Positions 7,865 to 21,263 of a stretch of DNA of 64,000 bases are shown here, piece after piece. This DNA comes from Alphaproteobacteria bacterium. Its GTDB lineage: Bacteria > Pseudomonadota > Alphaproteobacteria > Bin95. The notes below the pieces were generated by a model that searched no databases, was not told the DNA's origin, and saw nothing but the letters and a program-made list of their open reading frames with translations. The position numbers and the translations under genes were made by a program. The stretch's first letter is position 1, and every line of letters starts with the position of its first letter. The stretch is from NCBI GenBank assembly GCA_963665325.3, contig OZ224045.1, forward strand, positions 2,304,001 to 2,368,000, in the 5' to 3' direction.

Positions 7865-8040
7865 CCCGCTTGCCCCCATAGACCACAGGTCCCTCCCACG
7901 CGCGGGTCGACGCCAGCCACGTGGAGGGCGAGCCGCCCCGCGCGCGGGGCCCTCCCATGGACTATGGGGACAAGCTACCGCCAAGCCCGTGGTACATTTT
8001 TACGCCGCCGCGCCGGTACATTTTTGCTCCGCCGTTGACA

Positions 8041-11000
8041 GACTACGATTGGTGTACCGAGATGACGGTGGGATACGGAATGATCTTTCCAAATCATTAC
8101 TACGGTTTCACTCCCAATTGGATTGAAGGTGGACATTGGGGAAGACTCAGCAACAGGGATATTGCCTATGAAGATAAAATCTTTAGATTCCAGCGGATAG
8201 GGTTCACCGCAGATGTTTACGGTGGCAGATTGGTATATGTGTACTTCACCAAGAACGAGCAACTGCCGGATGGGATGGTCTTGAATTTGGGCGGGGCCAG
8301 ATTCGTGGCGGATGGCAATAGCTGGTTTGACGATGTGAGTACTGGGAAGCATATCTTTGTTTACCCCAACGGGTTTAGCATGGTTGAAGGACAGAAAATG
8401 ACCCTGAGCGCGAAGTTTCCCGACGACACCAACACGACGGGACAACCATCGATTACGGGCACACCGCAAGTAGGGGAGACCCTGACTGCAAACACTGGCG
8501 ACATTATGGACAGCGATGGCCTGGGCGCATTCAGCTACCAGTGGATCCGGGTGGACGGGCTTACCGAAACGACCATCGCTGGCGCCACCAGTAATACGTA
8601 TGCCCCAATAACGGCCGATGTGGGGAAACGTATCAAGGTAAAGGTCAGCTTTACCGACGGCGACGGTACCGAAGAGTCTGTCACCGGTGACGCTTATCCC
8701 TCAAGAGGTTATCCGTCGAGTGCCATTGGCATCGCAGCGGCAAAGACGGCCTGTCCCGCTGACAATGATTGGTGCGCAGAATTGACCGTGGGATACGGAG
8801 AACACGGTGACCCTGTTGTGGAATTCTACTATGGATTTACACCCTTGAACGTATACAGGTCCGATGGCGGTGGTGGATTTACGGGAACACTTAGTAATAG
8901 GGAACTCAGCTACAATTCCACAAATGTGACCTTTCAAAGGCTCGGGATTACCGATAAGGAATTTACCTTTGTGTACGCAGGTTTTGCAAACAGTGAACGC
9001 GTACCGGATGGCACGGTTTTCAATTACGGCGGGACCACATTCACCGCGGACAGTGAGAACTTTAGTTATGACACGTTCGGCATAGGGCAGTACGTCTTTA
9101 ATCATCGCTCTGGCTTGAGCATGGTTGAAGGCCAGAAGATGACGGTGAGTGTTACGTTCCCCGAGAGTACTAACTCTGCCACGGGCCAACCATCGATCAC
9201 GGGTACGCCGCAGGTAGGCCAGACCTTGAGCGTCAGCACCGCCGACATCGTGGATGCCGACGGCAAGACCAAGGCCGAGAATGATGACGTCGGCTACGCG
9301 TATACCTACCAGTGGCTCCGGCTGGACGAGGGCACGGAGACAGAGATTTCGGATGCGACCGCGGATTCCTACACCCTGAGTGACGACGACGAGGGCGCGA
9401 CGGTCAAGGTCCGGGTGAGCTTTACCGACGATCGGGACAATCCGGAGGGACCGCTCGAGAGCGCGGCCACTGCCACGGTGACGGCGCCGGCGGTGGCGGG
9501 GCTGACGGCCGAGTTCCTGGACGTGCCGGACGAGCACGACAGCTCGAGCGCGTTCACGTTCCGGCTCGCCTTCAGCGAGGACATCCGCAATGGCTACCGC
9601 AGGGTCCGCGACGACCTGCTTTCGACCACCGGCGGAACGGTCACCGGCGCACGCCGCGTGGAAAAGCGCCGCGACCTGTGGGAGATCGAGGTGGAGCCTT
9701 CGGGCAGCGACGCCGTGACGGTGACGCTGGCCGCAGGCGAGGACTGCGCGACGGCGCCCTGCACAAACGACCGCCGCACGCTGTCGGAGGAGATCTCCGC
9801 CACGATCGCGGGCCCGTCCCTGCCCGGGCTCTCGATCGCGGACGCCGAGGTCGAGGAAGGCCCGGGGGCGAAGCTGGCCTTCGCGATCACGCTCGACCGC
9901 GCGGCTTCGGGCACGGTGACCGTGCAGGCCTCGACCTCCGACGGCACGGCGGTGGCGGGCGAGGACTATCGCGCGAAGACCCTGACCAAGACCTTCGCCC
10001 CGGGCGAGACCAGGAAGATTGCGGTGATACGGGTGCTCGAGGACGGCCATGACGACGACGGCGAGACGATGACGCTCACGCTCTCGAACCCGACCGGTGC
10101 CTATATCGCGGACGGCACGGCGACGGGGACCATCACGAACTCGGATCCGCTCCAGAAGATGTGGCTCTCGCGCTTCGGGCGCACTGTGGCCCTCCAGACG
10201 ATCCAGGCTCTGGAGGGGCGCTTCGCCATCGGGTCGGACGCTTCGCCGCGCATGACGATGACGGTGGCAGGCCAGAGCATGGACCTCTCGCGGATCGGCG
10301 ACGACGAGGCGCTGGCGGAGACGATGACGGGGCTTGCGCGGGCGTTCGGCGCGCCGGGTGCGCCGGCGGCGAACCCCGGATCGGGGTCCGGGGCAGGCTC
10401 CGGCGACGACCCGTTCGCGCGGCACGGTATCGGCGGATCCTGGAACGAGGCCGACTCCCCGGCGCCGGCGCAGCCGGTTACGGGGCGCGATCTCCTGCTC
10501 GGGAGTTCGTTCCACTTCACGACCGGCGAGGCGTCGGGCCTGGGGGGCGCGATGACCGGCTGGGGCAAGGTGCTGTCGGGCGGGTCGAGCAGTTCGTTTG
10601 GCGGCGGGCTGTCGTTTACGAGCGAGACGGCGACCGGCGTGCTCGGCATGGACTGGGAGCGGGACAGGCTTCTGGTCGGGGTGGCGCTGTCGCGGAGCGT
10701 CGAGAAGGGTAGCGCGGCGTTCGATCGGACGGGTCTGCAATACGACATTGAGGGCTCGCTCTCGATGGTCACGCCCTATCTGCACGTGCAGGCAGGCGAG
10801 CGGCTGTCGTTCTGGAGCGCGGTCGGTTCGGGCAGCGGCTCGATGTCGCTCTCGCAGGGCGGCGGATGGCAGACGGCGGACATCGCCGTGCAGCTTGCGG
10901 CTGCGGGCGGGCGCGCCGAGCTGCTGCGTCCCGGGGCCGATGGCGGACTTGCGCTGGCGCTGAAGACGGATGCGTTCTTCGTGCGGAGCGAGTCGGCGCG

Positions 11001-11691
11001 GGTATCGACGCCCGGCGTCGGCAATCTCACGGCTGCGACGGGCGATGCAAGCCGCGTGCGGGCCGTATTGGAAGGGTCGCGGGCGTTCGCGCTGGCGGGC
11101 GGCGGGGCGCTGGCGCCGTCGCTGTCGCTCGGGCTGCGCCATGACGGCGGCGATGCGGAGACGGGCTCTGGCGTGGAGGTCGGCGCCGGGCTCACATGGT
11201 CCGCGCCGGCAGCCGGTCTGACCTCGGACCTTCGCCTCTACGGCCTGGCGGCGCATGAGGCGGGCGGCTACGACGAATGGGGAGCGAGCGGTTCGCTGCG
11301 GATGGTTCCGGGTGCGTCGGGCCGCGGGATGTCGCTGTCGATGACGCCGTCATGGGGCGCCCGGGACCAGGCCGGGCGGCTGTGGGATGCGGCGCCCGGC
11401 GGGTTGGCCGGGGACGGCGACAGGGAGCAGCCGGGCATGCGCCTCGACACGGAACTCGGCTATGGCCTGCCCCTGTCGGACGGCCTGACCGGCACGCCGT
11501 ATGCGGGCTTCGGGTTCGGCGAGGCCGGCGCCCGGGACTACCGCCTCGGCTGGCGGCTCGCGTCGGACCGGTTGCAATCGTTCTCTCTGGGCGTCGAGGC
11601 GACCCGCCGCGAGGCCGCGAACGACAACGGATCGGGGGAGGGCGGCAAGCCGGAGCACGGCATGACGCTGCGCGCCGGGCTGCGTTGGTAG
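8041..11691 (+). pseudogene. Surface/autotransporter-like protein, copy 2 (barrel type A), 5'-truncated by IS21
   Basis: Starts mid-domain (DYDWCTEMTVGYG) right at the IS end with no signal peptide; TGQPSITGTPQVG repeats, Calx-beta, barrel near-identical to copy 1. Confidence 0.82.
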
Positions 11692-11724
11692 GGCCGGCAT
11701 CCGGGGCGTGACCGCGCCCCGGCC

Positions 11725-11847
11725 GGCTCTGTTGCGAAGTTGGTTTGGACTGATGAAGAGTCCGCGCTGTCCAGGGCGAAGGGCAGCGGCATGAACGATT
11801 TCAAGGGGCGTCGCTTCGAGGGAGAGATCGTGCTCTGGGCCGTGCGC
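11725..11847 (+). mobile_element. IS6 family left-end fragment
   Basis: GGCTCTGTTGCGAAG terminal repeat, then ATG at 11791 encoding MNDFKGRRFEGEIVLWAVR (IS6100/IS26-like N-terminus), which breaks off. Confidence 0.8.
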
Positions 11848-11957
11848 ATTGGCACGATGATCGTCTCCGGGGACGGCGGCCGGTATCCCAGGCTGCTGTG
11901 CGGGCGCACGGCGTTGTAGTGGTGTCGCCAGGATTCGATCAGAACCTGGGCTTCCTG
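11847..11957 (-). pseudogene. IS3 family transposase C-terminal fragment
   Basis: EAQVLIESWRHHYNAVRPHSSLGYRPPSPE. Confidence 0.8.
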
Positions 11958-11965
11958 GTATTATT

Positions 11966-12907
11966 TTAATCCGTAGGATCGATGACCAGCGAAGCGTAGT
12001 CAGATTCGTAGAGTTTTTGGTTTTCGACCACGGCAAGGCGTTGGAGACAATATAGCTGCCAATAACCCTGCCATATCTCGGACCGGTGGTCGAGATGCTC
12101 GACCACCAGTCCGAGACCGCTGGCATCCTCCCATGAGATCATCTGTGAGTGCGACAGCCACCGTGTCGTGTCGAGAAGCTCGCTCGCCGTCGCTGACCAA
12201 TTGCCGTCCGGCCGAATACTGTCCGGCCGAAACATACCAGACCGCAGTAGAGATTCGGCGGACTGACGCGCGCGGTGCCTGGCCGCTTCACACAGTTTGA
12301 TAGTGGCTGGATCGATCTTACCAAGCATGATTTGAGCCGCGAGATTGTTGGGATCGTTCTGGAGTTCCTCCGCGTATGCATCGTAGGCATCAAGGTAGTT
12401 CTGTACGGACCGCCATCCGCCGGGGAGAAATATCTGCGGGTCAATCGGCCCGAGTTCAGACGTGTCGCTCATTACGACACTGTCGGCGCCGAGCACCATG
12501 ACCGTGCCAGCACTTTTGGCAAAATCCGGAACGATGATACGAAACGCTGCTTGCCCAATCCTACTCCTCGTCAATCGGATTATCTTCTCGGCAGCATCGA
12601 CGCTACCCCCTCCGGTATGAAGTAGTAGATCCACGTCTACGTTCGGGGGCACATTATGAAGGAGATCCGCAAATGGCATAGTGTCATCGATGTCGATGTG
12701 ACGGTGAATGCCTGATACGTAGCAAATTAGCCGGCGAGAAGTGCTTTCCTGAATCTCTTTGATGATTGCCTGCCGCTGGTAGCGTGCAGCATTGCTTGCC
12801 TGGAACAACGGTGTTTTAGTCACTGGTAGTACGGCATGCTCGAGGACAGTGTCGGTTTGGTCTGGTAAAAGATCCCCGCCGTTTCCCGGCATAGACGGTT
12901 GTGTCAT
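11966..12907 (-). CDS. ClpP-class SDH-type serine protease
   Basis: DLLLHTGGGSVDAAEKI...VPDFAKSAGTVMVLGAD...SELGPIDPQ...WLSHSQMIS. Confidence 0.85.
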   Translation of the reverse strand: MTQPSMPGNGGDLLPDQTDTVLEHAVLPVTKTPLFQASNAARYQRQAIIKEIQESTSRRLICYVSGIHRHIDIDDTMPFADLLHNVPPNVDVDLLLHTGGGSVDAAEKIIRLTRSRIGQAAFRIIVPDFAKSAGTVMVLGADSVVMSDTSELGPIDPQIFLPGGWRSVQNYLDAYDAYAEELQNDPNNLAAQIMLGKIDPATIKLCEAARHRARQSAESLLRSGMFRPDSIRPDGNWSATASELLDTTRWLSHSQMISWEDASGLGLVVEHLDHRSEIWQGYWQLYCLQRLAVVENQKLYESDYASLVIDPTD

Positions 12908-13260
12908 TTATTCTCTCTCCGGCTATCGGCAGCCCATTTGATTTTGCCGTTGCGCAAGATGAAGTGGCAGCGGCGTTTAGGGGTGATGTCGTCAATGCTG
13001 GGCCGGATCGACAGTGGCTTCACAGAGTCGACACTCCAGTGGGGGTATCGAGACCTGTCCAAATTCACCATCAAGCGATGCCCTGTTCGGCAGGGACAGT
13101 CGAAAACGACCCAAGTCAGGCGCTCTGGCCTGCCAACGAGGACTACGCCCTTGTCGGGCAACCGATCGGGCACCTCATCGCCAGCGTTGACCAGTCCAAC
13201 GATCCGCCAAGGGCGCCATGGGATTGGTAGCCATCGCCACCAGGCAATCAGCTTCTTCAT
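12904..13260 (-). CDS. DUF6527-like small Cys/His protein
   Basis: WVVFDCPCRTGH...NLD...W...LSIRPSI...CHFILRNGKIKW; ATGA overlaps at both ends. Confidence 0.78.
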   Translation of the reverse strand: MKKLIAWWRWLPIPWRPWRIVGLVNAGDEVPDRLPDKGVVLVGRPERLTWVVFDCPCRTGHRLMVNLDRSRYPHWSVDSVKPLSIRPSIDDITPKRRCHFILRNGKIKWAADSRRENK

Positions 13261-14639
13261 CCCAACCATGTCTGCTCAAGGAATGGTTCTGTGACGCCGA
13301 GTCCCAGCTTGTCCGCCCCCGGGTGGCAGTAGTGACCGTCGCCTGGGCCCTGGTCGTTGGTGGACACCTCCCGTTCGTGCGTCCGTAGCAGTATCTCCGT
13401 GGGTACAGGCTCAGCGCCGTAGTGAATGAGCCGCTCGAGCAGTTCGCTCACCGCCACTGCCGCCACCTGTGTCGTAAACGCGACGACTGCAGGCTCAGCG
13501 CCTGGCAGTGCAGGGGCGTAGCCCTCATCAGCAAGCCGGCGGTACTCATCTGGGGCGAGCATCTCGGCGGCCGCTCGCTGCAGGTCAATGCGGTTGCGAC
13601 AGACCAGACATGCAGCACCGGGGGCAAGTACCGTCACGCGACCGTCAATTCCGGCGAGTTGGCCCCCAATACCACTGCTCAGCAGCACACCGCAGTCAAT
13701 AACGGGAGTCAAAAGGTACGAAGCGATGCGAGACAGCACGAGCCGACCCGCGTTGTCATCGGTGCAGCCGAAGATAATGTCGGCGTCGAGCAGCAATTTG
13801 GCCGTGGATTCCAACGTTATCTTGGCCTGCGTGGCCATCACTTCGGTATCGGGAGCGATCCGGCTCACGTGGGCGGCACTCAAACTTACTTTCGGCTCGC
13901 CGATGTCTTGGGGGAAGGATCCGTATACGCGGGTGAGGTTACCTTCTGTCAACGTGTCGGGATCAAATAAGTGGAGGTGCCGTACGCCCAGGCGCACGAG
14001 TTGCTCGATAACGGCCGACCCGATACCGCCGCAGCCAACGACGGCGACGCGTAGGTCACCGAGGACCCTTTGGATTTCGCCACCGAAGGCGCGAATATTC
14101 CGATCAAATTGGTTAGAAGATGGCATTGTTTCGTATAGCCAGTTCTGAACGAGCCTAAACCGCCGACCGGTTACCCACAGACGGTCAATCTCGGTGCGTC
14201 TGTTCTCGGATTCGATGTGGCCCGTGAAGCAGAGGCGCGCGCCTGTCCTGGCGACGACAATTGCTCCGTATAAAGAGCTTCCTGCACGGAGCCGGAAGAG
14301 ATCAGCAAGTTCTTCGTCGACTAGCTCATCACGCTTGCTCGGTCTGGGGGATGATTCGTTTCCAGGGTGCGTATGCAGCCAAATTGGGACAGACTGATCG
14401 GCCTCCGCTGCAGCGAGAGCAGGCACGTAGCCTTGGGAGGCAATGCTCATGGCCGTGGCGTTGCGCAGGCGGTAGGCGTCATCCGGTACCCAGTGCAGCT
14501 CACGGGCGAGCAAGCGGACATCTCCGTTAGGCGTCTCCACATGCCGCACCAGCAGAACACCAGCGGTCTCGATGTCAGCGTCGGCCGCCTCCAAGAGTTC
14601 GGCTGCAATCTGGTCCGGAAACACAACCGTGACTGTCAT
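13257..14639 (-). CDS. JAB/MPN peptidase + ThiF/E1 adenylyltransferase fusion
   Basis: N-terminal ETAGVLL...HTHP...PSKRD; C-terminal VGCGGIGS, DPD...NLTR, GCTD, CLVC. Confidence 0.88.
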   Translation of the reverse strand: MTVTVVFPDQIAAELLEAADADIETAGVLLVRHVETPNGDVRLLARELHWVPDDAYRLRNATAMSIASQGYVPALAAAEADQSVPIWLHTHPGNESSPRPSKRDELVDEELADLFRLRAGSSLYGAIVVARTGARLCFTGHIESENRRTEIDRLWVTGRRFRLVQNWLYETMPSSNQFDRNIRAFGGEIQRVLGDLRVAVVGCGGIGSAVIEQLVRLGVRHLHLFDPDTLTEGNLTRVYGSFPQDIGEPKVSLSAAHVSRIAPDTEVMATQAKITLESTAKLLLDADIIFGCTDDNAGRLVLSRIASYLLTPVIDCGVLLSSGIGGQLAGIDGRVTVLAPGAACLVCRNRIDLQRAAAEMLAPDEYRRLADEGYAPALPGAEPAVVAFTTQVAAVAVSELLERLIHYGAEPVPTEILLRTHEREVSTNDQGPGDGHYCHPGADKLGLGVTEPFLEQTWLG

Positions 14640-15028
14640 GGGACCATCTCAGGCACACTGCGTTCCAAGTCTCGCCGGATCAGGGCAAGGAAACTCTCCA
14701 GACCATCGACTCCCGACTGCCACTGCCCGTTGCGGAAGTGTCTCGACCAGCGCTGCCATTTGCGTCCGAGATACGTTCCGACAGCATTGGTGGCCGGCAG
14801 AGCTTGGCCGTTGCTCAGATGAACTGGCGGAGAGAACCACCACATGTCAGGAGGGACATCTGGATAGCCGGGCTTGAGCCGAACCAGAAGGTCCGCCGCA
14901 TCGCGGTTAAACCCACTCGGCAGTGGCCACTGCGGCATTACGACGCATGTTATGCCCACCTCGACCGCGACTTCGTAGCCAGCACACCGTTCGTTCAGAT
15001 AAGTGATGTCGGATTGTGGAAGGGTCAT
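14636..15028 (-). CDS. Prokaryotic E2-like protein (Prok-E2_E type)
   Basis: WPLPSGFN...LLVRLKPGYPDVPPDMWW.SP...WQRWSRH...W. Confidence 0.83.
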   Translation of the reverse strand: MTLPQSDITYLNERCAGYEVAVEVGITCVVMPQWPLPSGFNRDAADLLVRLKPGYPDVPPDMWWFSPPVHLSNGQALPATNAVGTYLGRKWQRWSRHFRNGQWQSGVDGLESFLALIRRDLERSVPEMVP

Positions 15029-15324
15029 TGCAGATGGTGCACCGTTCCGCAGCCGGCGCCAGGATTGATGGTGCCTGGCGCTGTGAAAAAGCGCAGGCCA
15101 TCATAAACCGCGACCGTGTCGTCATCCTTGATTTTGAGGTCAGGGCGCCCGGGAATGACTTGGAAAAGATCGCGATCGGTCGGAATTGGAGTCGGTGGAA
15201 CACGCCGGACTTGAGCTCCGGTGATCTTCTCATCCACCCACTCGTACTGCGCCCGGTCGATCCGGATCGTGAACGCTTTCTGCTCGGGATTGTCCTTGTC
15301 GGGAACTGGATTCTCTGCAGCCAT
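15025..15324 (-). CDS. Ubiquitin-like (multi-ubiquitin-type beta-grasp) protein
   Basis: FTIRIDRAQYEW...ITGAQV...DLF...D.KI.DDDTV...GLRFFTAPGTINPG plus a 10-aa tail; GGAGG RBS before ATG 15324. Confidence 0.8.
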   Translation of the reverse strand: MAAENPVPDKDNPEQKAFTIRIDRAQYEWVDEKITGAQVRRVPPTPIPTDRDLFQVIPGRPDLKIKDDDTVAVYDGLRFFTAPGTINPGAGCGTVHHLQ

Positions 15325-15346
15325 GATAGGCCTCCATATCGAATGT

Positions 15347-15404
15347 GATACCACGATACCATGGTTTGATACCATTTGACAACCGTCTGCCCCAATTGCA
15401 TCAT
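15347..15404 (+). promoter_or_regulatory. Divergent control region with three GATACCA repeats and a sigma70-like promoter
   Basis: GATACCA at 15347, 15355 and 15368; TTGACA(15376)-17 nt-CATCAT(15399), 7 nt before ATG 15412. Confidence 0.62.
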
Positions 15405-15411
15405 CGGTAGC

Positions 15412-15627
15412 ATGAAACCATTCAAAGCGATGACGATTCGCCTGTCTGCCGACCAGTCAGATGAGTTGGATATGATCGCCGCTGTCGATGGTCGGCCGAT
15501 TTCGCAGGTAATCCGCTCGGCGATCGCGGGGCACATCGAGGAACGCAAACGCGACGCCTCGTTTCAAGACACCCTCCGTCAACGCATCGAGCGTGCACGG
15601 CGAATGCTGCCAAACGACGAGCAGTAG
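15412..15627 (+). CDS. CopG/RHH family regulator
   Basis: MKPFKAMTIRLSADQSDELDMIAAVDGRPISQVIRSAIAGHIE. Confidence 0.8.
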   Translation: MKPFKAMTIRLSADQSDELDMIAAVDGRPISQVIRSAIAGHIEERKRDASFQDTLRQRIERARRMLPNDEQ

Positions 15628-15657
15628 GGTGAGCGAGTAGGACTTCGAGCGGGTGCA

Positions 15658-16200
15658 CGCGGGTTTGCGGGCTCGCTGGCCTGGGACCCGGAGCCTTCGT
15701 CCGACGGGGGTCCGCGGCTCACGCTGAGCCAGACGGTGGGCGGGTCCGCTGCGGGCGCGGTGGAGACGCTGCTGCGGCCGGAGACGGCGCGGGTGCTGGA
15801 GGCGGCGAACGACCCCGGATCGGGGTCCGGGGCAGGCAACAGCGGGCAGAGCCGGCTCGAGGCGCGGCTCGGTTATGGCTGGCCTTCGTTCGGCGGTCGT
15901 TATACGACGGTGCCGGCGATCGGGGTCGGGCTGACGGAGGCAACCCGGGAATATATCCACTCCTGGCGCCTGGCGGAGGCTGGGAGTGCGGGTCTGGTGC
16001 TCGGGCTTGACGTGGAGGCGGTACGGCTGGAGCGCGTGACGGGCGATGCGGCGCCGGAGCACCGGCTGGTGCTGGGGCTCGGCTGGCGGCGCGAGGACGC
16101 CACGTTCGAGTTCCGTCTCGAAGGCTCGCATCTGCAGCCGGTCAGCGGCAACCGGGCGCCCGAACACCGCATCGGCCTTACCCTGACCGCGCGATGGTGA
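15658..16200 (+). pseudogene. Orphan 3' part of a type-B barrel gene
   Basis: RGFAGSLAWDPEPS...RLEARLGYG...HRIGLTLTARW, homologous to 20733-21263; no 5' part. Confidence 0.85.
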
Positions 16201-16439: not shown

Positions 16440-19400
16440 ATGAGGGGTCCGGGACGCTTTGTGTTTTTCGATTCCACACCAGAACGGAAACCGGGAGCCG
16501 GGCGCTCCATAACCCGACTGTGGGTCCGGGCGTTTGCGGCCCCGGTCCTGGCGGCCGGGCTGTCGATGGCATCGGCCGCGTTCTTCGCCACCAGCGCCCA
16601 GGCGCAAACGAGCGATGTCACGCTGGTCTCGAACATCGGCCTATCTACCGCAGGGAACCACGGCCGGACGGAGCCGCTCGCGCAGCGTTTCAACACGGGG
16701 GCGGCGCCCCTTGGGTACATGCTCACGTCGGTTGTGGTCGAGTACATAAACAATGAGGCCGGCAGCGTTTCGGCGAAGGTGTGTACGGTCACCGGCGCCG
16801 ACCAGCCGACCTCCACATGCACGGACTTCACCGCGCCGTCGATACCTGATGGCGGGAACAGAACCTTCACGGCGCCGGGGGACGGCATGTTTCTGGCGCC
16901 GAGCATGAAATACACGGTGGTGCTGACGCCGGACGAGACCAACGCGCTCATCTATTACAGAACGACCGCTAATGACAATGAGGATTCCGGGAAGCTTCCC
17001 GGTTGGAACATCGCGGGCGAATACCGTGTCTACAACGGGACCTCGTGGGTAAGTGACGACGACTCGCACGCACTCAAGATTCGTCTCAGGGGCAGCATTG
17101 TCAGAACCGTCGGCCCCAACGCCAACGCCACGGGGGCGCCGGACATCACGGGCCCGGCGCAGGTCGGCCAGAGGCTGAGAGCCCAAATGGGCGACATCGC
17201 CGACCCGGACGGGCTGCCGTCAGGCACGTTCCCGGACGGCTACTCCTTCCAGTGGATCCGGGTGGACAGCTCGGACAACGAGACGGACATCGCGGGGGCG
17301 ACGTCGGACACCTACACGCCGGTCACGCCCGGCGACCTCGGCCATACGCTCAAGGTGCAGGTGTTCTTCTTTGACGGCGACTCCATGGGCGAGGCGCTGA
17401 CCAGCGCCGCGACCAATCCGGTGGTGCCGGGCGCCGCGCCATGCTCGGCGGAGTCGGTGTGGTGCACGGTGCTGACCTCGGGCACCCTTGCCGCGCTTGG
17501 CGGCGACCCCCCAACAGTCGGCTTCCGCGGAGGCGGCGCGTTCGGCGGCCTCGTCGACGATACCTTCACCTTCGGCGGGACGACCTACTCGGTCACCGAA
17601 CTCACCAGTAACGGCGCTTCTGCCATCAATCTGAATACCGCCCCGCTACTGCCCGCCGACGGCGGCGGGCTGACGCTGCACGTCCAGAAGCTCATGGGCA
17701 CGCTCGATCTGGCGCTGGCCGATGCTTTCGGTTCGCCCCACACAGGAGCCAGTTGGAACTGGAACGGGGTGGTCGGCACCGGCCCCGGCAACCCGGTGCT
17801 GCTGCGCATGTTCCGCCGGATCAACGAGCGCTACCAGGAGGGAACCGACCCCGGCACGCGCGTCACGGTGTGGCTGAGCCCGCCGCCGGGTGTGAGCTTC
17901 GAGGAGCCGACCTACCTGGCGTACGAGGCCGGCGAGGGCGCGCCGGTGACGGTGACGCTGACCCCGGCGCCGACCTCGCCGGTGACGATCCCGATCACGG
18001 CGACCGGCCAGGGCGGGGCGACGTCCGCGGACTGGGACGGCATTCCGTCGATTCTGACCTTCGCCGCGGGCGAGTCGAGCAAGACGTTCATGGTGAAGGC
18101 GGTGGAGGATGCCGCCGCCGAAGAGGGCGAGCGCGTGGAACTCGGGTTCGGGACGCTGCCCACCGGCACCCCGGAGGGCTACCGGACGACAACGGAGGTG
18201 CATTTCTTCGACAGGGCGAGCCCGGGCGATGTTCGCCTGGTGGGAGGGAACGGCCTGCCGACGGCCGACGGCAGGGGCCGCCTGCAGGTGTTCTACCAGA
18301 GGCAGTGGGGCACGGTGTGCGACGACCGCATGGAGGGCAGCTTCAATATCTACGGCAACAGGGGCAACGTGCTTCGGACCGTGCCCAACCACGCGCCGGC
18401 GCTCGCTTGCCAGCTCATGGGCTACGAGACCGGCGAGGACATCCCCCTCGGCCCCTTCCGGAAAAGAAGCAGCGTCCCCGAGCCCATCTGGCTCGACGAC
18501 CTGCGCTGCGAGGAGCGCAACGTGATGATGTACGGCGAGGAGAGCGGCAGGCACTGGACGGGGGAGCTGCCGACACAGCTCGACCACTGCTTCCATGCCG
18601 GGATCGGGCGCGACAACTGCACACACGACGAGGACGTGGCGCTGCAGTGCACCGGCGTGAACCCGAATATCGGGAACCAGGTCGTGGCCGAGCCGCTGCG
18701 GGTGGCGTTTGTGGACGTTCCGAAGACGGGCCATGACGGCGAGACGGCGTTCACGTTCGGGCTCGACTTCAGCGAGGCGGTGGCGATCACGGCCGAGGAC
18801 ATGCGCGACCACGCGCTCGATGTGAGCGGGGCGACGGTGACCTCTGCGGCGCTGGCGGACGGACGCGACGACCTGTGGGAGTTCACGCTCGAGCCCTCGG
18901 GCACCGATAACGTGGTCATCACGGTGGCGGGGAAGGACAGTTGCTCGGACACCGGGGCGCTGTGCACCGCGCTCGGAGCGGGGCTGGAGAACCGGCTTTC
19001 GACGGTGATTCCCTACGTGCCGGCGCCGGCGGAGGCGGGTCTGACGGCGGAGTTCCTGGACGTGCCCGACGAGCATGACGGCTCGAGCGCGTTCACGGTG
19101 CGCCTGGTGTACAGCGAACCGGTGTTCGACGGGACCGAACCGTTCCACAAGAACCGGTCGGTACGCGACGCGCTGTCGGTGAGTGGCGGCAGCGCCACGA
19201 AAGCAGTCCGGGTCGACGCCGACAGCTACGACCAGTGGACGATCACGATCCGTCCGACCGACCACAACCCGGTCACGGTGACACTGCCGGCGGGCGGCGA
19301 CTGCGCGACGGGGCCCTGCACCGACGACGGGCAAACGCTCTCGCAGGAGGTCAGCGCCACCATCGAGGGCCCGCCGGGGCTGTCGGTTGCCGATGCGGAA

Positions 19401-21263
19401 GTCGAGGAAGGCCCGGACGCGAAGCTCGCCTTCGTCATCACACTCGATCGTGCGGTCTCGTGGACGGTGACGGTGCAGGCCTCGACCTCCGACGGCACCG
19501 CGGTGGCGGGCGAGGACTATCGCGCGAAGACCCTGACCAAGACCTTGGCCCCGGGGGAGACGCGGAAGGTTGCGGTGATACGGGTGCTCGACGACAGCCA
19601 CGACGAGGGCACCGAGACGATGACGCTCACGCTCTCGAACCCGGTGGGGGCGTATATCGCGGACGGCGAGGCGGTTGGCACGATCACCAACTCCGACCTG
19701 ATGCCGCAGGCATGGCTGGCGCGCTTCGGGCGCACGGTTGCGGACCAGGTGATCGACGCGGTGGAGGGCCGGATGACGGCGGCGCGGTCACCGGGGACGG
19801 CGGTGACGGTTGCGGGCCGGCGGATCGGGTCCGGGGCAGACGCGGCGGCGCTGGAAGAGGACGAGGCGCGGGCGGGTCTCCAGGCGCTGTCGGACTGGTT
19901 CCGGGGGGTCGAGGAGGAAGAGAACCAGCCGGAGAGCCGAGCGCTGACGAACCGGGACCTGCTGGCGGGCTCGTCGTTCTCGCTCTCTGGCGGCTCGGCG
20001 GAGACCGGCTTTGGAGCCGTGTGGGGCCGGGGTGCGGTCTCGCGCTTTGACGGTCGCGAGGGCGACCTGACGCTGGACGGCGAGGTCGAGAGCGCGCTGC
20101 TGGGGACGGACTATGCGCGGGGCCGGGGGATGCTGGGGCTTGTGCTGTCGCACAGCCGCGGCGAGGGCGGCTACCGGGCGCCGTCGGGCGGCGGGGCGGT
20201 GGAATCGACGCTGACCGGGGTCTATCCCTGGGGCCGCTACGAGGTGAGCGAGCGGCTGTCGGCCTGGGGCCTGGTGGGCTACGGCGCGGGCACGCTGACG
20301 CTGAGGCCGGCAGGCCAGACGGCGATCGAGACCGACATGGACCTTTCGATGGCGGCGGTGGGCGCTCGCGGCGTGCTGGCCCGGGCGCCGGCCAGTGGCG
20401 GCCTCGAGATAGCGGCGACGTCGGATGCGATGGCGGTGCGCACGACCTCGGAGGAGGTGCGGGGGAGCCGCGGCAGCCTTGCGGCCTCGGAGGCCGACGT
20501 GACGCGGTTGCGTGTGGGCCTGGAGGGCGCGTGGCGCGGTCCCGGGACGGAAGGCGGCGGCTCGTTCGTGCCGAGCGTCGAGATCGGGATGCGCCATGAC
20601 GGGGGCGATGCGGAGACGGGGTTCGGCGCGGACATAGGCGCGGGCCTTGCGTGGACGGACCCGGGTCTGGGGATCGAGGCGCAGCTGAGCGCGCGGGGTC
20701 TGCTGACGCATGAGGACGGGGACTTCGACGACCGCGGGTTTGCGGGTTCGCTGGCCTGGGACCCGGAGCCTTCGTCCGAGCGGGGTCCGTCGCTGACGCT
20801 GAGCCAGACGGTGGGCGGGTCCGCGACAGGCGGTGCGGACGCGCTGCTGCGCCCCGATACCGCGCGCCTGTTCGAGGCGGCCAACGAGGACGACGATGAG
20901 CTTGACCGGCGGCGTTTCGAGGCGCGGCTCGGCTATGGCTGGGCGTCCTTCGGCGGTCGCTACACGACGGTGCCGGCGATCGGGGTCGGGCTGACGGAGG
21001 CGGTGCGGGAATATATCCACTCCTGGCGCCTGGTGGAGGCGGGGAGCGCGGGTCTGAAGCTCGGGCTCGACGTGGAGGCGGTCCGGCTGGAGCGCGTGAC
21101 GGGCGATGCGGCGCCGGAGCACCGGCTGGTGCTGGGGCTCGGCTGGCGGCTCGAGGGCGCGCGGGCGGTTGCGTTCGAGACCCGTCTCGAGGCCTCGCGT
21201 CACGATCCCGCCAACGACAATGCCGAGCACCGCATCGGCCTCACGCTGACCGCGCGGTGGTAG
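16440..21263 (+). CDS. Surface/autotransporter-like protein, copy 3 (intact; SRCR, Calx-beta, barrel type B)
   Basis: 1607 aa; extended signal peptide ending AQA-Q, TLVSN N-terminal domain, SRCR at ~18230-18650, C-terminal TARW. Confidence 0.88.
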   Translation: MRGPGRFVFFDSTPERKPGAGRSITRLWVRAFAAPVLAAGLSMASAAFFATSAQAQTSDVTLVSNIGLSTAGNHGRTEPLAQRFNTGAAPLGYMLTSVVVEYINNEAGSVSAKVCTVTGADQPTSTCTDFTAPSIPDGGNRTFTAPGDGMFLAPSMKYTVVLTPDETNALIYYRTTANDNEDSGKLPGWNIAGEYRVYNGTSWVSDDDSHALKIRLRGSIVRTVGPNANATGAPDITGPAQVGQRLRAQMGDIADPDGLPSGTFPDGYSFQWIRVDSSDNETDIAGATSDTYTPVTPGDLGHTLKVQVFFFDGDSMGEALTSAATNPVVPGAAPCSAESVWCTVLTSGTLAALGGDPPTVGFRGGGAFGGLVDDTFTFGGTTYSVTELTSNGASAINLNTAPLLPADGGGLTLHVQKLMGTLDLALADAFGSPHTGASWNWNGVVGTGPGNPVLLRMFRRINERYQEGTDPGTRVTVWLSPPPGVSFEEPTYLAYEAGEGAPVTVTLTPAPTSPVTIPITATGQGGATSADWDGIPSILTFAAGESSKTFMVKAVEDAAAEEGERVELGFGTLPTGTPEGYRTTTEVHFFDRASPGDVRLVGGNGLPTADGRGRLQVFYQRQWGTVCDDRMEGSFNIYGNRGNVLRTVPNHAPALACQLMGYETGEDIPLGPFRKRSSVPEPIWLDDLRCEERNVMMYGEESGRHWTGELPTQLDHCFHAGIGRDNCTHDEDVALQCTGVNPNIGNQVVAEPLRVAFVDVPKTGHDGETAFTFGLDFSEAVAITAEDMRDHALDVSGATVTSAALADGRDDLWEFTLEPSGTDNVVITVAGKDSCSDTGALCTALGAGLENRLSTVIPYVPAPAEAGLTAEFLDVPDEHDGSSAFTVRLVYSEPVFDGTEPFHKNRSVRDALSVSGGSATKAVRVDADSYDQWTITIRPTDHNPVTVTLPAGGDCATGPCTDDGQTLSQEVSATIEGPPGLSVADAEVEEGPDAKLAFVITLDRAVSWTVTVQASTSDGTAVAGEDYRAKTLTKTLAPGETRKVAVIRVLDDSHDEGTETMTLTLSNPVGAYIADGEAVGTITNSDLMPQAWLARFGRTVADQVIDAVEGRMTAARSPGTAVTVAGRRIGSGADAAALEEDEARAGLQALSDWFRGVEEEENQPESRALTNRDLLAGSSFSLSGGSAETGFGAVWGRGAVSRFDGREGDLTLDGEVESALLGTDYARGRGMLGLVLSHSRGEGGYRAPSGGGAVESTLTGVYPWGRYEVSERLSAWGLVGYGAGTLTLRPAGQTAIETDMDLSMAAVGARGVLARAPASGGLEIAATSDAMAVRTTSEEVRGSRGSLAASEADVTRLRVGLEGAWRGPGTEGGGSFVPSVEIGMRHDGGDAETGFGADIGAGLAWTDPGLGIEAQLSARGLLTHEDGDFDDRGFAGSLAWDPEPSSERGPSLTLSQTVGGSATGGADALLRPDTARLFEAANEDDDELDRRRFEARLGYGWASFGGRYTTVPAIGVGLTEAVREYIHSWRLVEAGSAGLKLGLDVEAVRLERVTGDAAPEHRLVLGLGWRLEGARAVAFETRLEASRHDPANDNAEHRIGLTLTARW

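Follow-up and report, generated by a model that had tools for sequence, protein, structure and literature searches.

A ClpP-fold serine protease as the clade-specific fifth gene of a mobile Type I Bub ubiquitin-like conjugation operon

Bacterial Bub operons encode a pathway that conjugates a ubiquitin-like protein (Ubl). Here we report the analysis of a 64,000-nucleotide (nt) stretch of the genome of an Alphaproteobacteria bacterium (Bin95; contig OZ224045.1 of assembly GCA_963665325.3, positions 2,304,001 to 2,368,000; hereafter referred to as the window), in which a Bub operon is coupled to a gene for a serine protease with a ClpP fold, a member of the SDH family. The locus is, with near certainty, a mobile six-gene cassette that comprises a divergent RHH-type repressor gene and the operon bubA–bubB–bubCD–bubE–sdh, and belongs to the Type I Bub systems (6E.1/DUF6527) with separate genes for the Ubl and the E2. 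Surveys of genome and metagenome loci show that the protease gene forms an integral fifth part of the operon and is specific to this Bub clade. We regard it as quite possible, if short of probable, that the protease acts as a proteolytic effector arm, or output, of the conjugation system in this clade.

The operons formerly called 6E/DUF6527 were renamed Bub in a preprint by Ye, Gong, Chambers and Corbett (bioRxiv 10.1101/2024.11.21.623953; PMC11601596), on whose main text and Table S1 the following statements are based. A Type I Bub operon consists of a Ubl, an E2, a JAB–E1 fusion and the DUF6527 protein BubE; the Ubl is carried as an oxyester on a tyrosine of the E1 and then as an oxyester on a serine of the E2, and BubE is a Ser-His peptidase that removes Ubl conjugates. 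The enzymology of the pathway is described there, but neither a biological role nor an output, and no target is named. ClpP and SDH have no occurrence in the main text, and the terms protease, Clp, peptidase and SDH have none in Table S1 with its 544 Bub operons, which agrees with an earlier annotation of this DNA made from the sequence alone (hereafter the first-pass annotation), which knew of no ClpP-fold protease as a standard member of such operons. Likewise, no mention of a ClpP or SDH protease in Bub operons was found in the literature searched, a scope that left out the older papers on 6E operons and the PDF supplement, and within that literature DUF6527 was mentioned only in the two Bub preprints, neither of which names such a protease. 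As far as these texts extend, a ClpP-like protease as a Bub partner is absent from the Bub papers; the core itself is already known.

A survey seeded with the protease, taking one genome per species, found 17 loci. All six genes are present in 12 of them, and an additional locus cut by the contig end retains the genes from E2 to SDH, giving 13 of 17 loci with a Bub core; the other four are SDH fragments or lie at a contig end, and a full-length SDH gene without Bub genes occurs in none of the 17. The hosts are Dehalococcoidia, Anaerolineae, Vicinamibacterales, Acidimicrobiales, a gammaproteobacterial metagenome-assembled genome, Phyllobacterium and Pseudoxanthomonas. A second survey was seeded with JAB-E1 and made no use of the protease. 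It returned 80 metagenome loci with a JAB-E1 46–75% identical, 67 of which have at least 700 nt of downstream sequence, and an SDH gene is found in 60 of these 67, including two loci (L058 and L066) that show a partial SDH despite having room; the start of the SDH gene is visible in 3 of the 13 loci with short downstream DNA. Co-occurrence with homologous operons, on which the first-pass annotation had made its proposal depend, is thus found from both directions. Moreover, the related loci repeat the gene order of the window with overlapping or abutting genes, so the six-gene arrangement is not a chance run of open reading frames (ORFs).

The protease also stays with the cassette when it changes place. 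In L007, the SDH gene has been relocated upstream of the RHH gene and still lies by the cassette, and in L008 a DDE transposase gene separates BubE from SDH, with a similar gap in L016. SDH co-occurs with three regulator types, namely RHH, a HicB-like protein with a helix–turn–helix (HTH) protein (L075 and L076), and CapH with CapP (L098), so its bond is with the core rather than with the regulator. Furthermore, across 39 non-redundant loci and the window, the identity matrices of SDH and JAB-E1 are correlated with a Spearman coefficient of 0.63, a value reached by none of 300 permutations, and this link is as strong as those of the core genes among themselves (0.43–0.61).

The clade-specific nature of the association is apparent from a sample of 401 genomes of the window's phylum, 18 of which encode DUF6527, at 19 places outside the window's genome. 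At these distant loci, where JAB-E1 is at most 32% identical, neither tblastn nor profile searches found SDH within 7 kb (0 of 19), and no recurring fifth gene follows BubE among the 17 of 61 chosen ORFs that were scanned (ORFs on the BubE strand and four farther ones on the same strand). The profile of the SDH subfamily scores 467 bits on the window gene versus at most 137 bits elsewhere in the sample. Around distant SDH homologues (12 loci, with 55 of 91 chosen ORFs scanned), no Bub genes and no recurring partner were found, and the neighbours are a mixture of metabolic genes, two-component systems, integrase or resolvase genes and UmuDC. The clade itself spans Chloroflexota, Acidobacteriota, Actinomycetota, Alphaproteobacteria and Gammaproteobacteria, and in a collection of 5.8 billion proteins its protease and its E1 each account for some 2,000 protein clusters. 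Cultured carriers include Methylocystis bryophila DSM 21852 and Rhizobium sp. CCGE531, each on a plasmid, Phyllobacterium chamaecytisi and Pseudoxanthomonas sp. z9.

The profile and structure searches that the first-pass annotation had recommended place the protease in the SDH_protease family (PF01972), with a ClpP/crotonase fold. Its AlphaFold2 model (predicted local distance difference test score of 90.4) superposes on ClpP (Z = 13.8, with a root-mean-square deviation of 4.7 over 180 aligned residues), 1510-N (Z = 11.9) and SppA (Z = 11.7), and Foldseek matches it to ClpP with E = 1.5e-4; among viral models, the best matches are giant-virus 'serine dehydrogenase proteinases' (E = 5e-12, aligned over about 270–310 columns). 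The closest solved protein by sequence is the 1510-N/NfeD protease (profile E = 8e-6), whose active-site AASAGT aligns with AKSAGT of the window protein and places S132 on the nucleophile. This residue, the AKSAG serine to which the first-pass annotation had pointed, does not vary in any of the 47 aligned homologues, and the same is true of D156, H253, K131, E107, K108 and R212. Members of the SDH family have a catalytic Ser, Asp and His in that order, and Ser132, Asp156 and His253 constitute a candidate catalytic triad. 1510-N and SppA, which we take to use a Ser-Lys dyad, share with the window protease the ClpP/crotonase fold, the A-x-S-A-G-T serine, the lack of an ATPase partner, and an operon in common with proteins on which they may act (3bpp, 2deo, 4kwb and 3bez; 1510-N being the NfeD/STOPP protein of Pyrococcus horikoshii). 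Unlike them, the window protease has the invariant Asp156 and His253, no membrane anchor and no stomatin partner, and the residue that differs between two 1510-N entries, the presumed catalytic lysine, aligns with Ser167, which is nearly invariant in the protease family.

The protease passes the Pfam cut-off of the SDH family, with the PF01972 match covering residues 66 to 159 only, and its candidate triad would follow the Ser, Asp, His order of that family. Against the NCBIfam equivalog NF047768 (SDH family Clp fold serine proteinase) it scores 79.2 bits, below the cut-off of 250, and is therefore a relative rather than an equivalog of that family; it forms an SDH subfamily of its own, bound to Bub operons. 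ClpP, which has a partner AAA+ unfoldase and a Ser-His-Asp order, differs from the protease in both respects, and the position of the ClpP His motif reads PIDPQ by eye. The N-terminal 30 residues are disordered and, by inspection, lack hydrophobic character, which makes a cytoplasmic location probable. Profile and structure comparisons recognized no Ubl-binding or other extra domain, and the whole protein is one SDH-type domain; in the ESM Atlas, the protease falls with SDH-family clusters only. A search for fusions yielded a single, uninformative sequence (P0241, 651 residues) in which a shortened SDH is joined to part of a type I restriction R subunit. A complex prediction for SDH residues 28–313 with Ubl residues 14–99, run on alignment inputs with no controls, scored 0.00 against a mark of 0.32 and weighs neither way.

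A phage head-maturation protease mimic was considered and rejected. The NCBIfam match is weak (E = 8e-5; 22.6 bits, where the cut-off is 120), and the nearest phage homologues, at 27–29% identity, are accessory genes away from the head-protease position in the two of eight phage records inspected. Of the SDH-like genes in Shewanella phage vB_SspS_MuM16-1 (L173) and a Porphyromonas phage (L174), one lies between a late regulator and lysis genes and the other beside a HicAB pair.

The five genes of the operon lie on the minus strand and are joined by four ATGA stop/start overlaps, read directly from the sequence at 15028–25, 14639–36, 13260–57 and 12907–04 (Table 1). ORFs, families and overlaps are as the first-pass annotation had listed them, and its other statements on the layout hold as well: the G+C content is 0.55–0.62 over 11.5–16 kb versus 0.68–0.73 in both flanks, and a divergent RHH gene is present, with its start now moved. 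Its assignment of the operon to a Bub/Bil-type system is narrowed to Bub Type I, as the E1 and E2 match Citrobacter BubCD and BubB best, and the Bil alternative is dropped; its DUF6527-like gene does belong to the DUF6527 family and corresponds to BubE, which, as the main text of Ye et al. describes it, is a deconjugating Ser-His protease, so that the operon already had two peptidases without SDH.

Table 1. Coordinates of the cassette and adjoining features in the window.
Feature	Position	Strand	Remarks
BubA (Ubl)	15025..15324	-	ORF open to 15375; 99 residues; PF14452 Multi_ubiq E = 4e-10
BubB (E2-like)	14636..15028	-	PF14462 Prok-E2_E E = 1e-37
BubCD (JAB/JAMM peptidase and ThiF-type E1 fusion)	13257..14639	-	ThiF E = 2.6e-37; Prok-JAB E = 6.5e-5
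BubE (DUF6527)	12904..13260	-	ORF open to 13269; PF20137 E = 2.8e-17, 62.8 bits versus cut-off 23.6
SDH-type ClpP-fold serine protease, 313 residues	11966..12907	-	PF01972 E = 1.9e-16, 60.4 bits versus cut-off 31.3
RHH (RelB/CopG/DUF6290-like) regulator, divergent from operon	15412..15627	+	Weak family matches
Divergent promoter/operator region	15341..15411		Repeats and promoter-like sites
Variable segment, 3,962 bp (insertion sequence fragment and all six genes)	11696..15657		Contig joint in related samples
Insertion sequence transposase 3' remnant	11874..11954	-	PF13683 rve_3 E = 1.7e-10

With their catalytic residues kept, the first four genes form an intact Type I Bub operon. BubA, whose start is most likely the ATG at 15324 with a GGAGG 7 nt before it, is a single beta-grasp domain that ends in an invariant C-terminal RFFTAP..INPG motif, reaching Gly89, and a 10-residue tail; none of I86, N87, P88 and G89 varies among the 25 aligned homologues, whose tails are 0–10 residues long. 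A tail beyond an invariant glycine would fit trimming by the JAB domain. BubB carries Ser95, His97 and Asp61 where a catalytic cysteine would be, each conserved in at least 97% of 70 sequences. Its closest solved relative is Citrobacter BubB (9eae_C, E = 2.5e-11), in which the QRWSRH and DM motifs align with S95/H97 and D61. Cys28 of BubB (14945–14947), far in sequence from the Ser-x-His site, is conserved in at least 97% of the 70 clade members and is not kept in Citrobacter BubB. The Ubl and the E2 are encoded by separate ORFs in the window, unlike in the BubAB fusion of Citrobacter. This split does not disqualify the operon from Type I, because Table S1 of Ye et al. files split operons under Type I and fused forms occur inside the clade, where the Ubl and E2 are joined in L086, L096 and L100. 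The number of Ubl domains varies in the clade, with two tandem beta-grasp matches before the E2 in L006 and L007.

BubCD aligns over residues 24–408 with its closest solved relative, Citrobacter BubCD (9ea4_A, E = 3e-25); the Prok-JAB match, at 23.2 bits, is slightly short of the 25-bit cut-off. E24, H89/H91/S101/D104, R237 and Y374 correspond to the published E28, JAMM motif with D104, R227 and Y370, given an assumed offset of +2 in chain numbering, and across 77 sequences the conservation of these catalytic residues is 97% or more, and that of E24 80% or more. BubE has C55, C57, H61, S88, C98 and H99 conserved in at least 97% of 70 sequences, a pattern that fits a zinc-binding cysteine cluster and a Ser-His dyad, preceded by a Trp-rich hydrophobic N-terminal extension of the kind called conserved in the main text of Ye et al. 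No BubE structure is solved, and Citrobacter S92/H102 are putative counterparts of the conserved Ser and His; by transfer of function from the Citrobacter system of Ye et al., BubE is probably a small zinc-binding Ser-His peptidase. By homology with that system, the JAB domain would cut the Ubl after Gly89, the E1 would adenylate the Ubl and then hold it on Tyr374, the Ubl would move to Ser95 of the E2 and on to target lysines, and BubE would take it off the conjugates again.

The cassette resembles the BubAB–BubCD–BubE system of Citrobacter sp. RHBSTW-00271 (9ea4, 9ea5, 9eae and 9eav) in its Multi_ubiq Ubl ending in a conserved glycine, its cysteine-free E2 with Ser-x-His and Asp, its JAB–E1 with a crossover-loop tyrosine and its DUF6527 BubE, and it differs from that system in the coupled fifth SDH gene, the separate Ubl and E2, and low sequence identity (BubCD phmmer E = 3e-25). 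PADLOC-DB v2.0.0 (2023) has no match for the Ubl, E2, BubE, SDH or RHH; only the E1 part matches, to CBASS-type E1–E2 models. Elsewhere in the phylum sample, DUF6527 ORFs without E1 or E2 lie beside Mu-type portal genes or an Rz lysis gene (L050, L052 and L053) and represent orphan BubE-like prophage genes.

SDH is missing in 7 of the 67 JAB-E1-seeded loci (L116–L119, L068, L070 and L134). In L116–L119, which carry CapH and CapP regulators, nothing occupies the place of the fifth gene. In L068 and L070, an antiphage dCTP deaminase gene (PADLOC dCTPase E = 1e-136; L068:3380-4939) directly follows BubE, to which it is ATGA-coupled as read from the ORF coordinates, and an MqsA-like HTH/SocA-Panacea regulator stands in place of RHH; dCTP deaminase is a single-gene defence. 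L134, the most distant locus, has no visible BubE and is basal on a JAB-E1 tree, which was built with FastTree, bears local supports and was rooted with distant Type I operons. The other operons without SDH branch from among SDH-bearing ones on this tree: L068 and L070 fall within an 11-leaf clade (support 0.998), and L119 is sister to the SDH-bearing L012 (support 0.94). The simplest history would be a single gain of SDH at the base of the cross-phylum clade, after which it was lost once and, in one further case, gave way to a known defence effector. The Ubl, E2, E1 and BubE, with the BubE extension included, stay intact in operons from which SDH was lost or in which it was replaced, and SDH would therefore stand outside the conjugation cycle itself.

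An output role is favoured by the dCTP deaminase that took the place of SDH and by the loss of SDH with no decay of the core. SDH would then cleave proteins marked or recruited by the pathway, or conjugation would license its activity. Such an arrangement resembles Type II CBASS (Cap2/Cap3) and Bil, in which E1/E2/JAB machinery is likewise found with a separate output activity, stress-responsive repressors and a defence-island or mobile setting. In contrast, the target of conjugation in CBASS is the system's own cyclase, and nucleotides activate the effectors, whereas the candidate output here is a ClpP-fold protease; Bil attaches its tag to a phage tail protein and lacks an effector of the protease type. 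The protease is thus a concrete candidate for the output of Bub, and a Ser132 mutant offers a simple genetic handle on it. Several observations weigh against an output role. ClpP-fold proteases on their own cut just peptides or unfolded tails, and the six-gene cassette encodes neither an unfoldase nor an ATPase, with no ATPase gene conserved across the 17 genome loci either. SDH is dispensable in some lineages, as the seven SDH-free loci attest, and the dCTP deaminase in its slot could mean that the 3' end of the operon is a mere landing site for independent defence genes. The limited cuts that 1510-N and SppA make in specific partners or peptides fit a regulatory role as well. According to the main text of Ye et al., conjugation is robust without such a protease, and no Bub operon tried in Escherichia coli protected against phage.

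SDH may alternatively be a regulatory or maturation protease that tunes conjugation through limited cuts in a pathway component, such as the N-terminal extension of BubE, the tail of the Ubl or free Ubl, or the repressor, a possibility that we consider somewhat unlikely. It stays alive because an unfoldase is lacking and the solved relatives make limited cuts: 1510-N and SppA cut the hydrophobic tail of a specific partner or signal peptides, and 1510-N/NfeD is the closest solved relative by sequence as well as a structural match. Such a role would also suit the ATGA coupling of BubE and SDH in the window, their abutting position in most loci, and the Trp-rich extension of BubE. However, the JAB domain and BubE already provide peptidases for trimming and deconjugation, the three unrelated regulator types found with SDH mean that RHH cannot be its obligate substrate, and in the intact SDH-free operons nothing in the cycle depends on it.

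Other accounts take conjugation and proteolysis to be directly joined. A pathway of the 'mark then cut' kind, free of ATPase, in which the clade-wide ClpP-fold protease acts on Ubl-marked proteins, strikes us as unlikely. If true, it would be the first case in bacteria of Ubl conjugation that ends in proteolysis, at odds with the opinion in the companion Bub paper, where degradation signalling is judged unlikely in bacteria; protease action on tagged proteins would amount to an independent bacterial invention of tag-dependent proteolysis. The stricter version, close to what the first-pass annotation had proposed, in which SDH recognizes the Ubl moiety and degrades Ubl-conjugated proteins as a minimal ubiquitin-protease pathway, appears improbable. 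It can claim the same linkage evidence as an output role, and a protease is the one activity that would make the outcome of conjugation irreversible, but there is no unfoldase and no recognizable Ubl-binding domain, BubE would remove the tag, and the opinion of the companion paper stands against it. Finally, there is a slim chance that SDH is an independent passenger, a stand-alone defence or plasmid gene at the 3' end of the operon that is co-inherited as the cassette moves en bloc. The stand-alone dCTP deaminase in the same place in L068 and L070 and the mobility of the cassette, with its plasmids, lower G+C content and adjoining insertion sequence (IS) remnant, speak for such a passenger. 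Yet no full-length member of the SDH subfamily was found away from Bub among the 17 loci, its non-Bub relatives in the phylum sample score far below the window gene, and the ATGA coupling, the retention of SDH by the cassette after its relocation in L007 and a co-diversification as tight as that of the core genes all argue against a passenger.

The usual regulator of the clade is the RHH protein, unlike the CapW or CapH and CapP of Type I Bub systems; some related loci carry CapH and CapP and are alike in this respect, as in being mobile cassettes. The family matches of the window protein are weak (DUF6290, E = 3e-4, and RHH_1, E = 2e-3, both below the Pfam cut-offs; NCBIfam RelB-like, E = 9e-5), and homologues occur in 12 of 17 genome loci and, among the 51 metagenome loci that have 1300 nt or more of upstream sequence, in 40. 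The RHH ORF is open from a TTG at 15376; conservation begins at M13 of the long ORF, so the start is most likely the ATG at 15412. Between the RHH and Ubl genes, back-to-back promoter-like sites have a common −35 element (TTGACA at 15376–15381 on the plus strand, and TTGTCA-18-TATCGT at 15382–15353 on the minus strand). Three promoter-like sites were found versus 1.6 expected from shuffles, and they are weak taken alone. Three TGATACCA/TGGTATC repeats at 15346–15374 overlap the −10 element of the promoter-like site of the operon. The layout GGTTGTCAA...GTGGTATCGTGGTATCA recurs in most RHH-bearing related loci, and tandem TGGTATC/TGATACCA repeats adjoining the common TTGTCAA −35 element are kept between RHH and Ubl in most RHH-bearing relatives (L001–L136). 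The repeats are thus a candidate RHH operator over divergent promoters. A role of SDH as a substitute for CapP that cleaves the repressor was ruled out, since SDH also accompanies CapH with CapP and the HicB-like regulator in the loci named above.

Directly past the stop codon of the protease gene lies the IS transposase remnant, which corresponds to the last 27 positions of the rve_3 integrase core (profile positions 41–67 of 67). In the related public runs X1 (side 48) and X4 (side 92), a contig joint from 11695 to 15658 skips the cassette. The joint was obtained with min_likeness 90, and the contigs that bear it differ from the window at 11659 and 11662; it is a hint only, and these contigs may stem from a strain that lacks the island or represent a paralogous locus. 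The drop in G+C content coincides with the segment that the joint delimits. Furthermore, the cassette is found on at least seven plasmids, at 46–48% identity, with Rhizobium, Methylocystis, Phenylobacterium and Microbacterium among the hosts, and on the Methylocystis and Rhizobium plasmids the RefSeq label of the protease is 'hypothetical protein'.

In the window, the cassette is flanked by a pair of very large paralogous genes (7921–11691 and 16440–21263) that encode Calx-beta and Ig-like domains and, in one of them, SRCR domains. The segment at 15736–16200 is a gene fragment that repeats, at 71% identity, the C-terminal 150 residues of the 1607-residue product of the downstream gene. On the Rhizobium and Methylocystis plasmids (L170 and L171), the neighbour of the cassette at its RHH end is a gene of the Fic family that has a small ORF upstream of it. 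Six loci from Dehalococcoidia (L003, L004, L008, L015, L016 and L017) encode, next to the cassette, a 637-residue protein with no Pfam or PADLOC match (L003:8384-10297), just 3' of SDH in four of them and upstream in L008 and L016.

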